Below, piece by piece: positions 35,801-44,800 of a DNA stretch of 64,000 nucleotides. Positions within the stretch are counted from its first letter, which is position 1. Each line of letters begins with the position of its first letter. The stretch is from positions 64,001-128,000 of the forward strand of contig JBJHCF010000001.1 of NCBI GenBank assembly GCA_050506795.1. Direction: 5' to 3'. Source of the stretch: Opitutia bacterium (GTDB lineage Bacteria > Verrucomicrobiota > Verrucomicrobiia > Opitutales > T3Sed10-336). Made by a program: the position numbers.

Positions 35801-38800
35801 ACCGAAGGCATTCATGTTAGAGTCGATCATACTTGGCAGGGTATTTCCTTGGCTATTGGGTCCGACCGTCCTGTGGGTTGGCCTTTTTGACATGACATTC
35901 TATGCGCCTAGTATTTGAGGCGAGGCGCGATTGATTTTCTGTGAGAAAATGCGAGAACGAGTAAAGTTGTTGCAGATAAGAAAAATTCAGACACGATTTT
36001 AACTTATCGATCACGCTTCAACCCGATCAGCCAGGGCGGGTCGGGTGTTAGTTTAACAAGCAAGATTCGATAACTACACTTTTACTAGGCTACTCCTCGC
36101 TAGTATTCGGGAGTCGTAGCGAATCAATTGCTTAATTTGAATTAGCGATTCGGGTAATGCGGCTACCAGGAATTATGGCATGTTTGGATTATCAGGTAAT
36201 GCGATTTCTGCTTGTGGGATTTCTCGCGGCGGGCGTGGAATTTGTTTTTTTTAACTGGTTCGTTCGGTTCTTCTGGTGTTCGGTTCGTGTGCGGGCTAAT
36301 CTGGTTGCGGTAACGGTCGCCATGTCGCTAAGTTTTCTTTTGAACCGAAATTGGACCTTCGCGGATACGAATTCTGGGAGTTGGCCGGTGATGGAGTTTG
36401 TGGTGGTGACGCTTATTGCGGCTTATGGCCTTCAGTCGTTTGTGATTTGGGTCCTTTCGGTTAATTCGGCTGAAGCTGTATCCGGCGAGGATGTGGGACG
36501 ACGGATTGATGTATCGTGGATTGGGTTGCCTGGGCGCGAAGTGAAGCGGTTGGCTTACGGTCTGGCGGGGTGCGGTGGCGCCGCGTCGGCGGGTCGGGTG
36601 GATTTTGTGGAGCGTAATTTGGTCAAGGGGGCGGCGTTGGGAGTGGCCTTGATTTGGAATTTTTCATGGTACCGGTGGTATGTGTTTTCTTAAACTGATC
36701 GGAGGAACAACGAAACACACGAAACACACGAAAGACACGAAATGAGGGGAATGAAATGATATTGAATGGGATCCTCGGGTGGAGGCACGGAGATGGAGGC
36801 GGGCAGCGATGTCGGCGTTCGCGGGATGGTGTTCAGGCAGAGGTACGAAGATAATGAAGAAGGGTATTGGCCACAGAGATCACAAAGAACACAGACTGGT
36901 GAATTTAGCTGAGAACCGACAACGTTTGCGCGCCGATGCGGTAGGTGACGATTTCCAGTCCGGCGGCACGGGCGGAGCCGTGCCCTCCAGGATTTTTTCG
37001 TGCTTTTCGTGTGTTTCGTTGTCCGAAATATTTCCGCGGTCCAGGCTGCTCTATGGAGAATAGAAAGAGGACTGTCATCGTTGGGGCGGGTCCGGCGGGG
37101 TTGACGGCGGCGGCGGAGTTGACCGGGTCGGGGTATGAGGTGACGGTGCTGGAGGCGGACAAGGACTATGTGGGAGGGATTTCGCGTACCGTCCGGTACA
37201 AGGATTTTCGCTTCGATATCGGCGGACACCGGTTTTTCAGCAAGAATGCTTCCATCGTGGCTTGGTGGAAGGCGCGGTTGCCGGACGATTTTTTAAGCGT
37301 CCGGAGGCAGTCCCGGATTTTTTACGGTGGACGGTTTTACGACTATCCGTTGCGTCCGGCAAACGCTTTGCGGAATCTGGGCGTTTTCAAGAGTACCGCT
37401 TGTGTCATCAGCTACCTCCGCAGACGGGTGTTTCCGGTGAAGCCGGAGGTGACGTTTGAGGATTGGGTGACCAATCGGTTCGGCGACAGGCTGTTCGAGA
37501 CTTTCTTCAAAACGTATACGGAAAAGGTCTGGGGTATGCCGTGTTCCGAGATCAGCGCGGACTGGGCGAGCCAGCGGATTAAGGGGCTTTCGTTAAAGGA
37601 GGCGGTGCTGGGTGCGTTTCGGGCTCAGGGGAGCGGCAACGGCGTCATCAAGACCTTGATCGACGAGTTCCAGTACCCGCGCCTGGGGCCGGGGATGATG
37701 TGGGAGAGGACCCGCGATGATCTTGCGGATGCCGGAATCCGGGTTCGCATGGGGCGAAAGGTTACGGAGATCCATCGGCACCACGGTCGAGTGGGGTTTA
37801 TGCGGACGGTCGATGCGTCCGGGAAGATGGAGGATTGGGAGGCGGACGAATTCATCGTGTCGATGCCTCTGCGCGATTGCGTGCTGGCGCTGCGGCCGGG
37901 GTTGAGTGAGGAGGCGTGCGTGGCGGCTCGCGGTTTGCGGTACCGTGATTTTCTTACCGTGGCCTTGATTGTCGAGGCGGAGGACTTGTTTCCGGACAAC
38001 TGGATTTACATCCATGACGCGACGGTTTCGGTCGGACGAATCCAGAACTTCAACAACTGGAGTTCCGAGATGGTGGGGCGGCCGGGGGTGAGCTGTCTCG
38101 GGCTTGAATATTTCTGCAACGAGGGCGATTCCCTCTGGGAGAGTTCCGATGAGGCTTTGCTCGCGCTGGCGAAATCCGAAATCGGCAAGGTGGGACTGGC
38201 GCGGCCGGAGTCGGTGATTGACGGGTGCGTGGTGCGGATGGAGAAGGCGTATCCGGTTTACGACGGGGAATATGTCGAGCGGGTGAACACGATTCGCCAG
38301 GGGCTTTCGGTCCTGCAGAACTTACAGGTGGCCGGGCGGAACGGGATGCACAAGTACAACAACCAGGACCATTCGATGATGACGGGCATCCTGGCGGCGC
38401 AACGGATCCAGGGCGGGACGCTGGACCCGTGGCGGGTGAACACCGACGCCGAGTATCACGAAGGCGGTTCCAGCGAGCGCGAGGTCGGTCGCTTGGTGCC
38501 GGGCCGAGTGGAAAAGGATACTGTGGAAAGGACGACGGGGATCGAATAATGCGTGTCCTACTTGCCGCGTATTTTTCCGTGGTGATCACCGCCGGTGTCC
38601 TGGTGGCGACGGGGCTGGTGCCGGATTGGGGGCGGTGGTACTCCAATCACCTGGCTTACCGCTGGCAGACGGAGGCGCTGCTGAGCGGGTCGGTGTCGAT
38701 CGGTACCGAGGCGCGGTACCTGGTGTGGGACAAGGTCTGGGCGAATGGAAACGTGCAACAGGCCTGGGGCCTGGGCGTGCCGTTCTGGAGGTTGCCTTTT

Positions 38801-41800: not shown

Positions 41801-44800
41801 GCGGCCGGAATAGCGGCGGGGCTGTACGCGCTGAAGGACCTTCCGCAACGATGGAGGGGCCGGCGGACAATGGGGGCGCTCGCCGCGGTTTTCTTGTTGT
41901 GGTGGGGATGGCAGGTGTTTCAAGCCGACTACGATCCACCGGGCCGCGCGCCGCTGAACCGAGCACAGGCTGAGGCGTTTTTCAGGGATAACGTGCCTCC
42001 TTTTGGCGGGCTTCCCTCGGAGTACGCCCTCGGTGACGGTTCATTGGCCCGTTCGGGAATCCACGGTAATGTGCTTGGATGGCGAGCGGATGACGGTCGG
42101 GTGCGGCCGACGGCGGTGGTATTCGTCGAAGACATGGAATGGCTGAAAATCGACCTGGCGCCGGCATTGGGGGAATTTTTGCCACGGGAGCACTACGCCA
42201 TGGTCCGGGCCAAAGTCGGACTGGAGGAGTTGGTGCTGACGTCGATGGAAGAGACGGAGGACGGTTGGCGCTTGGAGTTCGCCGCACCCGAGAGGGCGGC
42301 GTACCGCGAAGGGGTGCAAGTGGTTTTCCTGGCCTTGGTTCCGGTGGAGGATTTTCTGGAAAGCTACTCTCCGTTCGTACTTTCCCGCGTGGCCTGGAGG
42401 AGCGAATAGGACGGTGGAAAGGTGGCTGATGGAGAGGGAACAACGAAACACACAAAAGGACTATGTTTTATGGGTGGAAAAGGAAATATTCCAAGGAGGG
42501 AAAGCCACCGCGTGATGTCATCCATTTTCGTGCTTTTTGTGTGTTTCGTTGTTTCCCAAAATCCGAATAATAATTAACCTATCCTCTAGTCAGATTAACT
42601 GCTGATTCTTACCATGAAATCAATATCCCGAAATCTCCCGAACCCTGAGGTAACGAGAAGCGGGTTCACTTGGATTGAGTGCCTGGTGGTGGTGGCGGTG
42701 CTTGGCGTGCTGGCGGCGGTGCTGGTTCCGGTGGTCGGGAAAATGCGCGAATCGGCCCGGCGGGCGGCGTGCGCGGAGAACCTTCGGGTGATCGGCAACG
42801 CGGCGTTGCATTATGCCGAGGAATGGGACGGTCGTTTTCCCAGGATGGATCCGGGGGGAAGGTGGCCGTGGGATGTGTCGGTAAACGTCACCTATGCGCT
42901 GAGCCCATACGGGACGATCCGTGACACCTTTTATTGCCCTTCCGGGCCGTTTGATGAGCGGGCGGTGCTTTGGGATCACGGGGTGAGTTTTACCCGCGGA
43001 GGGGAGCGGGGAAGTCGTACGATATCGTACGTTCTTTTATTTGAGCGCGCGCCCAGGGTTTTGCCTCAATACACGCATTCGCGCCTCCCGGCGACCGGTT
43101 CGGGGGGTGAGGCGGTGGGCCCGCAAGAACTCGCGGTCGATGCCGTTCTTTCCGCGGGCGGCGGACGACACGCCAACTTTCATCGTATCATTCACGGCAG
43201 CATGCCGCGCCCGGATCGGACGAATCACCTGAACGGCACCCAACCCGCCGGCGGAAACGTGTTGTTCCTGGATGGGCATGTCGCCTGGCGGGATTTTGAG
43301 GAAATGGACGAGACCAAAGTCACCGGCGTTCCGGTGTTTTGGTGGTGAGCGGCTTGCGCCGGCTGCTGGTTCCTGGTTCCTGGTTTGGAGGTTTGCTGCG
43401 CACTTGACACTCTAAATGGTGAAAATATGTTCACTTTATGGGGGTGTTATGCAAAAAGAGCCAATTGGCGTTGTTGCGGGAGAAGTTGCGGCGGGAGTTT
43501 CCCGGGAGTTTGCCTGCGGGTGAAAGGGTCAAAGTTTTCCCCACCGGGGTGCCGGGGTTGGATGGCTTGCTGGAGGGCGGGTTGCCGCGGGGCGGGGTGA
43601 CGGAAGTCAGGGTGTGGGCCGCCAGCGCGGGCGGACAGACCTTATTGATGACGGTGCTCGATGCGGTGACCGCCCGGCCGGCGCCCGTCGCTATCATCGA
43701 CCGGGCGGATGCCTGGGATTTTTCTGTCCTGAGCCCGGATCGGCGGCAGTGGGTGCTTTGGGTGCGTTGCCGGGGGGAGGGAGAGGCGGTGCGCGCGACC
43801 GACCTGTTGGTGCGCGACGGCAATTTTCCGCTGGTGGTGATGGATCTGCGGCGTCCGCCGGGGGAGCGTCGCGGGCGAAGCCTGCCGTCGCGAATCTGGT
43901 ACCGTTTGCAACGGGGCGCGGAGCGTTCGGGGTGCGCGCTGGTGGCGGTCACCGGCGGGGAGTCTCTGCCCTGCGCCCGGCTTAAATTGAGTTTGCGCGT
44001 GTCCCTGAGCCTGGAGCACTTGGAGGCGCTGCACGAAAGACGGGTTTCCTGGGAAAGCGTGTTGGAAGTCTGTCAGGACGGGGAAATCTTCACCGGGCCG
44101 GATGGCCTTCCCGCGGCGCGGACGGAGCCACGCTCTCCAGGAGTTTTGTCCGTCTCGAATTAAACAAGCACGACCTATGAGTTACGCGGCGATCGGGATT
44201 CCAGGGTTTGCGCTGCAGGCGGCTTTGCGCTGCAGGGGTGGGGTTGGGGATCGGGTGGTGGTGTTGATGGACGAGACCTCACGCCGGGCGCGGGTTGTCG
44301 CGATGACCGCCTCGGCGGCGCGTCGCGGGATCAGGATGGGAATGACCGCTCCGCAAGTCTTGGCGCGCGAGCCCCGGGCCGAGATCGTTTCCCGTTCGCC
44401 GGAAGGAGAGGCGGCGGCCGCGACCCTTTTGCTTCGTCACGGTGGCTCGCTGGCGCCCCGCGCCGCCTGTGTCGAACCCGGGTTGTGCCTGGTGGACCTG
44501 GCAGGGGTTCCGCTGAAACGGCGGGAGCGGCAGCCCCGGGAAATCGTGACGGCGTTGCAACGCGAAGGGTTGAGCGCGCGTATCGGAATCGCTCGTACAT
44601 CCGGACTCGCCCGGCTCGCCTGGCGGCGGGCGGAGCCGGTGCTGGAGGTGACCGATGAAAAGGCGTTTGTCACTGATTTTCCCGTACACCTGGCCGGGCT
44701 GTCTCCGGCGGGAGAGAGGCTGATGAGGCATTGGGGGATGCGCACCCTGGGCGCGTTCGCCGCGCTTTCGCGCCAGGCGGTGGCGGAACGGCTGGGCGCG

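Follow-up and report, generated by a model that had tools for sequence, protein, structure and literature searches.

Which sugar is transferred by a family of ~610-aa membrane proteins from an Opitutia bacterium, and to which acceptor? Two members are encoded in the window, the 64,000-nt stretch of contig C1 analysed here. An earlier note assigned them to a cassette at 36175..43348 and described a candidate furanose-transfer system for surface proteins, in which GT-C glycosyltransferases are combined with a GtrA flippase and a eukaryote-type UDP-galactopyranose mutase (UGM) beside pseudopilin genes. The GtrA, FAD enzyme, GT-C paralogue a and b and pilin-like genes are real and all lie on the + strand. 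The cassette is present on C1 and C18 as claimed, but its extent was drawn too short: it starts ~4 kb further upstream, with an edge at ~31808, and thereby includes genes for an ECF sigma factor, a MauE protein with a CxC motif, a LolA-fold protein anchored in the membrane and a 10-Cys protein with a signal peptide. The locus is organized as follows.

31808..32581, +, pilin-like protein 1 (N-methyl motif, DUF1559, C-terminal H-X9-DG-like motif)
32791..32827, +, (TC)18.5 microsatellite preceding the sigma factor gene (TRF, 100% matches)
32894..33484 (alternative start 32855), +, ECF sigma factor (TIGR02937, 73 bits, over cut-off)
33576..34040, +, MauE/DoxX-type membrane protein (PF07291, E 8e-6; 26.7 bits, just under the cut-off of 27)
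34105..35277, +, LolA-fold extracytoplasmic protein with a C-terminal membrane anchor (model and structure matches)
35347..35748, +, Cys-rich, signal-peptide-like protein of 133 aa with 10 Cys (hydrophobicity filter)
36175..36693, +, GtrA-family polyprenyl-phosphate-sugar flippase (PF04138, E 9e-14)
36706..37022, no strand, intergenic inverted-repeat element, also present at 40419-40556 and 42436-42557
37053..38549, +, PRK07208-family UGM-like flavoenzyme, the FAD enzyme (NF005545)
38549..40410, +, GT-C paralogue a, frameshifted (ORFs 38549-39691 and 39475-40410)
40586..42409, +, GT-C paralogue b, intact, 607 aa (structure model, conserved polar residues)
42614..43348, +, pilin-like protein 2 (N-methyl/DUF1559; 51% identical to pilin-like protein 1)

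By tblastn, the genome contains six members of the family, of which C1 has two (one of them split), C18 three and C5 one. C18 additionally encodes GtrA, two FAD enzymes and a pair of pilin-like genes. The frameshift of paralogue a is located inside a G-rich 14-nt tandem repeat (39608-39663), and another assembly, which may derive from the same sample, shows the same sequence. Removal of one repeat unit yields a protein of 615 aa that is 57.6% identical to the intact C18 paralogue.

The structure model of paralogue b (pLDDT 94.8) contains a membrane domain (residues ~1-470) with an extended loop after TM1 and a CBM-like β-sandwich (residues 475-607). All top 20 matches of a VIA structure search are GT-C-fold proteins, with Pmt2 first, tied with ALG12, ArnT and AftA (best Z 16.5, rmsd 5.2 over 360 aligned residues), which bears out the proposed fold. 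EmbC and EmbB do head the Foldseek list (E 4e-5 to 1e-4), at a TM-score of 0.36 and an rmsd of ~20; the special affinity to Emb arabinosyltransferases drawn from it is lost in the VIA search, where EmbB occupies rank 19 with Z 8.9. Identity with the Emb enzymes (GT53) was rejected on this rank, on a length of 607 aa against a two-domain architecture of ~1000 aa, and on the PDB search with the family profile, which returned nothing under E 1. The window protein has no Pfam match, again as the earlier note stated. Among 48 alignment members, three show a weak Pfam match (one of them PMT_2, E 0.006), and none reaches the cut-off of the curated Pfam/NCBIfam GT-C families (PMT_2, GT87, LA_3751). 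NF047440 matches 8/48 members, and the window protein scores 20.6 bits against its cut-off of 200. On the model, the protein combines a GT-C fold with a carbohydrate-binding-like domain at its C-terminus, and it belongs to no curated family.

Many GT-C enzymes carry a catalytic Asp right after TM1. Across 170 sequences of this family, no acidic residue is 90% conserved at that place; the first conserved acid, D62 (164/170), is 40 residues past TM1, as placed in the sequence alignment. The conserved polar set comprises D62, D99, E165, E166, R208, E263, H266, R326, R328, R396 and D400.

The FAD enzyme exceeds the cut-off of the bacterial NCBIfam family PRK07208 (646.7 bits against 451), as does the second C18 copy (546.6 bits against 389). 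Its designation as eukaryote-type is correct insofar as eukaryotic UGMs head its PDB matches (E 6.6e-22; bacterial UGM, 6.5e-9), but not as a sign of rarity, because the enzyme passes a bacterial cut-off and the family occupies at least 598 loci in GTDB. Its GLF domain score is 13.4 bits, under the cut-off of 26.3, and the genome (97.8% complete) has no bacterial GLF match. A profile match to TcUGM and AfUGM extends over the full length (E 4e-43). Ten UGM residues analysed in PMC4192007, which concern the flavin, the phosphate and ring contraction, were compared. Eight are kept (His62, Arg176, Tyr317, Arg327, Tyr395, Arg423, Tyr429 and Asn433 of TcUGM), whereas Val63 is replaced by Arg and Asn201 aligns with Ile in a loosely aligned stretch. 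Unlike known UGMs, the enzyme belongs to a large bacterial family of predicted activity only, for which no paper was found in the literature searched; it is a candidate nucleotide-sugar pyranose-furanose mutase.

Within the GT-C tree, 20/24 FAD-linked sequences fall into one 25-row clade that holds the window genes (FastTree support 97, not a bootstrap value). The FAD enzyme is thus supported as a specific partner of this subclade, a stronger tie than the earlier note allowed, and two divergent subtypes of the enzyme, 41% identical, can share one locus. Because eight of the ten UGM residues are kept and the enzyme tracks one GT-C subclade, a furanose donor is plausible for the window subclade; galactose as the sugar is unproven.

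Neighbours within 5 kb of the GT-C gene were counted in 78 other loci. The FAD enzyme (7/78), GtrA (4/78, besides the window and C18) and pilin-like genes (11/78) are uncommon, as the earlier note held, although its counts of 5, 1 and 8 of 79 loci differ. The commonest partners are ones it had missed: MauE (27/78) with a Cys-rich peptide (25/78) and the LolA-fold protein (20/78), and a DPM-type GT2 (27/78). Peptides, MauE and the LolA-fold protein occur in 21, 22 and 17 of the 36 PVC-labelled loci, respectively, and 28 of these loci have at least one of the three. A metagenome set of 78 loci gives 21, 20 and 17. These counts overstate independence, because many loci derive from the same or related genomes; the link between peptide and GT-C persists over several branches of the FastTree phylogeny. 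The module is found in 0/24 Myxococcota loci and 1/9 Acidobacteriota loci, where other GT-C-like proteins, LPG-synthase-type membrane proteins and methyltransferases are the neighbours instead, so that specificity for peptides cannot hold across the whole family.

The peptides were called by a hydrophobicity filter in place of a signal-peptide predictor. The control of the filter finds a Cys-rich peptide in 22/78 GT-C loci against 2/80 FAD loci. Spurious or uncertain rows were dropped by eye (L009:10883, L017:9287, L070:1492, L004, L015, L018:14789, L022, L025:297, L035, L049, two in L052, and L061:20346; in the metagenome set, L221). The peptides are hypervariable, of 63-172 aa, with an even Cys count after residue 25 in 22/25 cases; 24/25 lie on the strand of the GT-C gene and 9/25 are no more than 500 nt away from it. 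They have no sequon or WxxW/C motif in common, and the 133-aa window peptide has neither, nor a Pfam or NCBIfam match. All three GT-C loci of the genome carry MauE and a Cys-rich signal-peptide protein, and its three MauE genes and three credible 10-Cys ORFs (of five filter matches) are distributed one each per locus. The 10-Cys protein is a candidate acceptor, and MauE, whose C106 and C108 (CxC) are invariant in 27 sequences, a candidate disulfide catalyst.

The LolA-fold model has a lower confidence (pLDDT 76.9); LolA and LolB are its best Foldseek matches, and LolA is matched in VIA with Z 11.7 and rmsd 3.1 over 164 residues. Its family was assembled from the loci, since a homologue search returned only the query, and members are sometimes fused to MauE. 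A LolA fold implies a hydrophobic ligand. In one alternative, sugar would be accepted by this LolA-fold protein, by a lipid or by a small molecule; or else the GT-C-fold protein would be non-catalytic, like PIG-U, and bind a lipid-linked product. PIG-U is indeed among the structural matches (Z 10-12), and the canonical acid after TM1 is absent. The strongly conserved polar set and the fusions of GT2 to GT-C, already noticed for one homologue in the earlier work, argue for a catalytic sugar-donor role, and we regard this alternative as improbable.

Eleven cassette GT2s were scanned, and for each the best score, although below cut-off, was to AglJ, followed closely by PpgS and Dol-P-hexose synthases. 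Cultured Limisphaera strains contain the cassette, some with GT2-GT-C fusions. The three GT-C loci of our genome lack a GT2 of the polyprenyl-P-sugar synthase type; a 253-aa GT2 elsewhere on C1 (contig positions 138550-139311) is ~27% identical to the cassette GT2s. A lipid-donor pathway is proposed because of the GT2 within 5 kb in 27/78 loci, the AglJ-like scores and the fusions.

Our best reading, tentative and a little short of even confidence, is that exported peptides rich in disulfides are glycosylated by a lipid-donor system of three components. From folds, families, residue conservation and gene linkage we infer each chemical step, the sugar and the acceptor. The Cys-rich precursor would leave via Sec, MauE would form or shuffle its disulfides, and the LolA-fold protein may hold or hand on the peptide or a lipid-linked partner. 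A DPM/GtrB-type GT2, acting in trans in this genome, would load the sugar onto polyprenyl phosphate; in the window subclade, the PRK07208 flavoenzyme would first turn the nucleotide sugar, probably into a furanose. GtrA would flip the lipid donor, the GT-C enzymes would place the sugar on the peptide, with paralogues that prime and extend, and the pilin-like proteins may tie the product to type II/IV machinery. The lack of a shared peptide motif, of a 90% conserved acid after TM1 and of a GT2 in the genome's own cassettes counts against this reading. So does the occurrence of MauE of the cassette type in other genomes that lack the cassette GT-C; in one case a Cys-rich peptide accompanies it. 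Because the MauE alignment is too variable for a pattern scan, 401 genomes of the phylum were searched; in the 400 other genomes MauE is detected in 11 and GT-C in one, weakly. Ten of these MauE regions were inspected: none has the cassette GT-C, and most are unrelated DoxX-type genes.

The CBM-like C-terminal domain (VIA Z 6-8) would suit a glycan acceptor, as in GT136, for which PMC11127046 describes this architecture. The GT-C proteins could accordingly put side-chain sugars on a surface glycan or glycolipid (LPS, EPS) in a Gtr/GT136-like manner, with the peptide module as a co-travelling passenger. Polysaccharide-type neighbours in Myxococcota loci agree with this, as does the general company of PRK07208, which is near GtrA in 12/80 of its loci and has other GT-C-like proteins as neighbours too. 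In PVC loci, however, the GT-C gene often directly follows the peptide gene and the link extends over several branches, and no polymerase or O-antigen export gene was present among ~200 representative same-strand or abutting neighbours scanned, of 506 neighbouring genes. We consider a glycan acceptor unlikely.

The pilin-like proteins, the acceptors proposed originally, do flank the cassettes on C1 and C18, where they are mutual closest paralogues (51-64%; protein 1 is 64% identical to a C18 cassette gene). Both exceed the TIGR02532 cut-off and have a class III signal peptide with Glu+5; protein 1 also passes Pfam N_methyl and SBP_bac_10, with TIGR04294 at 16.8 bits, under the cut-off of 19. 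The type II secretion pseudopilin family (GspG-K) was rejected at GspG scores of 21.8 and 30 bits, under 88.85, and the genes are surrounded by no T2SS operon, the ATPase and secretin genes being on other contigs. A TfpW-like system that places furanose sugars on the adjacent pilin-like proteins has a precedent in TfpW and its GtrA-like flippase (bioRxiv 10.1101/2020.04.19.049825), and the genome has 13 T2SSE-family and five secretin matches. The regions up to 5 kb from a pilin-like match make up only 9.3% of the genome, yet there are 51 such matches and a pilin-like gene is near only 11/78 loci, against 25/78 for the peptide, which makes pilins a weak choice of acceptor. None was found in the C5 locus, and the TfpW route employs DprE1/DprE2 and not a mutase. 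This proposal is rather improbable.

Compared by description, the peptide-directed system favoured here shares with GtrABC and with Citrobacter GT136 (PMC11127046) a polyprenyl-P-sugar synthase, a flippase and a GT-C. With GT136 it further shares a periplasmic domain past TM1, a CBM at the C-terminus and an auxiliary enzyme that modifies the donor. In the GT136 system, however, the donor derives from PRPP, the flippase is of the MATE type, the auxiliary enzyme is an SDR epimerase and the target is O antigen, whereas the cassette has a GT2, GtrA, a UGM-like flavoenzyme and a secreted-peptide module. TfpW of Pseudomonas, likewise compared by description, resembles it in a membrane transferase, a furanose on protein, a GtrA-like flippase and a nearby pilin gene, and differs in D-Araf made via DprE1/DprE2 and in the major type IV pilin as acceptor (bioRxiv 10.1101/2020.04.19.049825). 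Signal-peptide RiPPs with DoxX/MauE (bufferins, PMC11626156; MauE candidate clusters, PMC7794033) have in common a Sec-exported Cys-containing precursor, a DoxX/MauE-type oxidoreductase and an ECF sigma factor nearby, and in the cassette, too, a small precursor gene is clustered with tailoring enzymes. Here, by contrast, the tailoring genes encode GT-C, GT2, GtrA and an enzyme resembling a mutase. Neither an MNIO nor any other maturase of the cytoplasm was seen, and the peptides are longer and hypervariable. With the protein-acting GT-Cs (Pmt1/2/4, PglB/AglB/STT3, DPY19) only the fold is common, in the absence of a sequence-level match and of a conserved acceptor motif.

The analysis defines an unnamed GT-C family of 525 representatives (E up to 1e-30) and supplies it with a concrete testable acceptor, the Cys-rich peptide. 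With the residue comparison, PRK07208, whose label is still 'hypothetical protein', can be assayed directly for sugar mutase activity. Glycocins are glycosylated ribosomal peptides that are modified in the cytoplasm. If the peptide reading is true, modification of varied disulfide-rich peptides by a GT-C in the periplasm would represent a new route, with possible use as a tool in glyco-engineering. A wider proposal, which we consider doubtful, is a class of secreted, disulfide-stapled hypervariable glycopeptides made by extracytoplasmic GT-Cs from a lipid donor, in which cassette content would switch the sugar (PRK07208 giving furanose) and slippery repeats would vary expression; PRK07208 would then be a second bacterial lineage of pyranose-furanose mutases. 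The literature searched yielded no description of the cassette, whose novelty could be affected by the orthologue lists in the supplements of PMC11127046 and PMC11626156.

The (TC)18.5 microsatellite before the ECF sigma factor gene is a possible phase-variation switch. The inverted-repeat element is largely confined to this locus, which contains 8 of its 9 genome-wide matches in a repeat search. At the C18 locus, an ORF that by eye looks like an AraC-type regulator occupies the place of the ECF sigma factor.

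Gene and domain calls in the window confirm the gene content reported in the earlier note: a GT-C protein, a FAD enzyme, GtrA and pilin-like genes. The cassette is arranged as follows:

31808–32581, + strand, pilin-like gene 1
+ strand, ECF sigma factor, then MauE, then a 390-aa protein without an assigned family
+ strand, 133-aa protein with 10 cysteines
+ strand, GtrA
37053–38549, + strand, flavoenzyme, 498 aa
38549–40410 and 40586–42409, + strand, two ~610-aa membrane paralogues (GT-C)
ending at 43348, + strand, pilin-like gene 2

The GC content is 0.45–0.50 in the sigma factor, MauE, LolA-fold (390-aa) and peptide genes (32894–35748), compared with 0.59 for the genome, and 0.60–0.62 in the FAD and GT-C genes, which suggests two modules that may have separate origins. 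A putative Rpn/YhgA-like transposase gene (Pfam) lies at the upstream edge (30875–31609), and similar fragments adjoin the genome's other GT-C loci, on contigs C18 and C5. An imuA-imuB-dnaE2-like mutagenesis cassette (43438–48882; Pfam RecA-like and IMS matches, dnaE2 by sequence only) lies directly 3´ of the GT-C cassette.

The genome holds six GT-C copies at three loci (C1, C18 and C5). Word search yielded 60 homologues, and 1121 representatives were gathered at E ≤ 0.001 (525 at E ≤ 1e-30). No family claims the protein in Pfam, NCBIfam or PDB sequence searches; the nearest trace is NF047440 (putative glycosyltransferase), found far under its cut-off in 8 of 48 members. Foldseek with the AlphaFold model (pLDDT 94.8) places EmbC/EmbB at the top, but with an rmsd near 20. 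In an unbiased structure search, the leading matches are Pmt2 (Z 16.5), ALG12 (16.0), ArnT and AftA (15.8 each); the 20 best matches all have the GT-C fold, and EmbB ranks 19th. The predicted GT-C fold is thus well supported, as the earlier note proposed; an arabinosyl specificity is unsupported. Residues 475–607 resemble carbohydrate-binding modules (Z 6–8). Across 170 sequences, the polar positions under conservation include D62, D99, E165, E166, R208, E263, H266, R326, R328, R396 and D400; directly following TM1 there is no conserved acid. Some other role, or a non-catalytic GT-C-fold protein, is the least probable alternative that we weighed. In four members (P0111, P0132, P0149 and P0165) the protein is fused to another domain: a weakly matching GT87-like one, TPR repeats, DUF1573, or DUF1573 plus cytochrome c.

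The genome has three MauE genes, one per GT-C locus (truncated in C5), and each locus also has one credible Cys-rich signal-peptide ORF with 10 cysteines; these ORFs are three of five filter matches in the genome, and of the remaining matches one resembles a respiratory Fe-S subunit and one a spurious ORF. The CxC of MauE is invariant, and the 390-aa protein has a LolA fold in its model and a C-terminal membrane helix. Within 5 kb of GT-C in 78 GTDB loci, we counted the peptide in 25 (two filters, then curation by eye), MauE in 27, GT2 in 27, the LolA-fold protein in 20, pilin-like genes in 11, the FAD enzyme in 7 and GtrA in 4. The uncurated peptide filter matched 22/78 GT-C loci versus 2/80 control (FAD enzyme) loci. 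A metagenome set (n = 78), which partly overlaps the GTDB set and often has short contigs, gave the same pattern (peptide filter 21, MauE 20, LolA-fold 17, GT2 24, pilin-like 12, FAD 8, GtrA 2). Some genomes contribute more than one locus, and the counts given here are therefore not independent. Among the 25 curated peptides, 24 share the strand of the GT-C gene, nine lie within 500 nt of that gene, and the number of cysteines is even in 22.

Our leading, still tentative, reading is that GT-C glycosylates this peptide. The Cys-rich peptide would be exported and oxidatively folded by MauE; a GT2 would make a polyprenyl-phosphate sugar donor, which the mutase-like enzyme would convert in this subclade and GtrA would flip, and the GT-C enzymes would transfer the sugar to the peptide. 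The mechanism is built from folds, families, residues and linkage only. It extends the interpretation of the earlier note, which stands in part, by the peptide module. A glycan or lipid acceptor is rather unlikely, though it ranks next. The peptides are barely alike in sequence and no common sequon was found among them; at least one of peptide, MauE and LolA-fold protein occurs in 28/36 PVC-labelled loci, but in 0/24 Myxococcota and 1/9 Acidobacteriota loci. Tandem arrays of LolA-fold, peptide and MauE units, with up to three peptides per locus, occur in L225, L230 and L264. In another genome (L102:8797–11518, G330), MauE and a Cys-rich peptide are found together with a pilin-like gene and a 296-aa protein but no copy of this GT-C, which indicates that the peptide module can stand alone.

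A pilin acceptor, which we judge improbable, is suggested by the flanking genes. Both window copies carry a class III signal and fall under every Gsp cut-off; the copies in the cassettes are each other's closest paralogues. The genome has 51 pilin-like matches, and the stretches within 5 kb of such a match add up to 9.3% of its length, so the flanking of two GT-C loci exceeds chance. Only 11/78 other loci have such a gene nearby. Export and acceptor roles are equally likely for these proteins.

With regard to the donor, 11 cassette GT2s score best, under cut-off, with AglJ, closely followed by PpgS and Dol-P-hexose synthases, and GT2-GT-C fusions exist. This genome's own GT-C cassettes contain no GT2; a 253-aa GT2 at C1:138550, adjoining a PMT_2-type gene, could act in trans. 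The flavoenzyme belongs to PRK07208 (NCBIfam); a profile search matches eukaryotic UDP-galactopyranose mutases along their full length (E 4e-43). Of the ten active-site residues of the eukaryotic TcUGM analysed in PMC4192007, it keeps eight; Arg replaces Val63, and Ile is aligned at Asn201. The enzyme probably carries out mutase-type chemistry. PRK07208 occurs in at least 598 GTDB loci; this GT-C is missing from all of the best 80, of which 12 include GtrA and several have GT-C-like neighbours of another kind. In a FastTree tree of 156 GT-C sequences, one clade of 25 rows (support 97) contains the window gene and 20 of the 24 rows linked to FAD; its five rows without FAD comprise four on contigs shorter than 5.3 kb and the C5 copy. 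By this clustering, the mutase partners the window subclade rather than the family as a whole. In C18 (L001:3369–4865 and 8833–10329), L004 and L005, PRK07208 is represented by two subtypes that have diverged to 41% identity, within cassettes of up to four GT-C paralogues, which suggests two different sugars.

In its working, the cassette resembles three-component glycosylation systems, GT136 in particular (PMC11127046), and TfpW (bioRxiv 10.1101/2020.04.19.049825). In combining a signal peptide with DoxX/MauE and an ECF sigma factor, it is reminiscent of bufferins (PMC11626156) and of candidate RiPP clusters that contain MauE (PMC7794033). By the tests made it belongs to none of them, and no description of it was found among the papers listed in literature searches.

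GT-C paralogue a, the first of the two in the window, is broken within a 14-nt tandem repeat (39608–39663); removal of one unit restores a 615-aa reading with 57.6% identity to the intact C18 paralogue. The region is identical in a second assembly, possibly from the same sample. Together with (TC)18.5 before the sigma factor (32791–32827), a second slippage-prone repeat, it makes phase variation a possible candidate. A ~30-nt repeat forms facing pairs between cassette genes (30283–30610, 32698–32727, 36706–37022, 40419–40556 and 42436–42557) and is almost private to this locus: eight of nine genome-wide matches (two mismatches allowed) lie here and the ninth lies just upstream of the C5 GT-C. 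Four cassettes (L008, L021, L067 and L073) come from MAGs labelled Akkermansia, Bifidobacterium or Fibrobacteraceae and group among Verrucomicrobia sequences in the tree; these contigs may be mis-binned.
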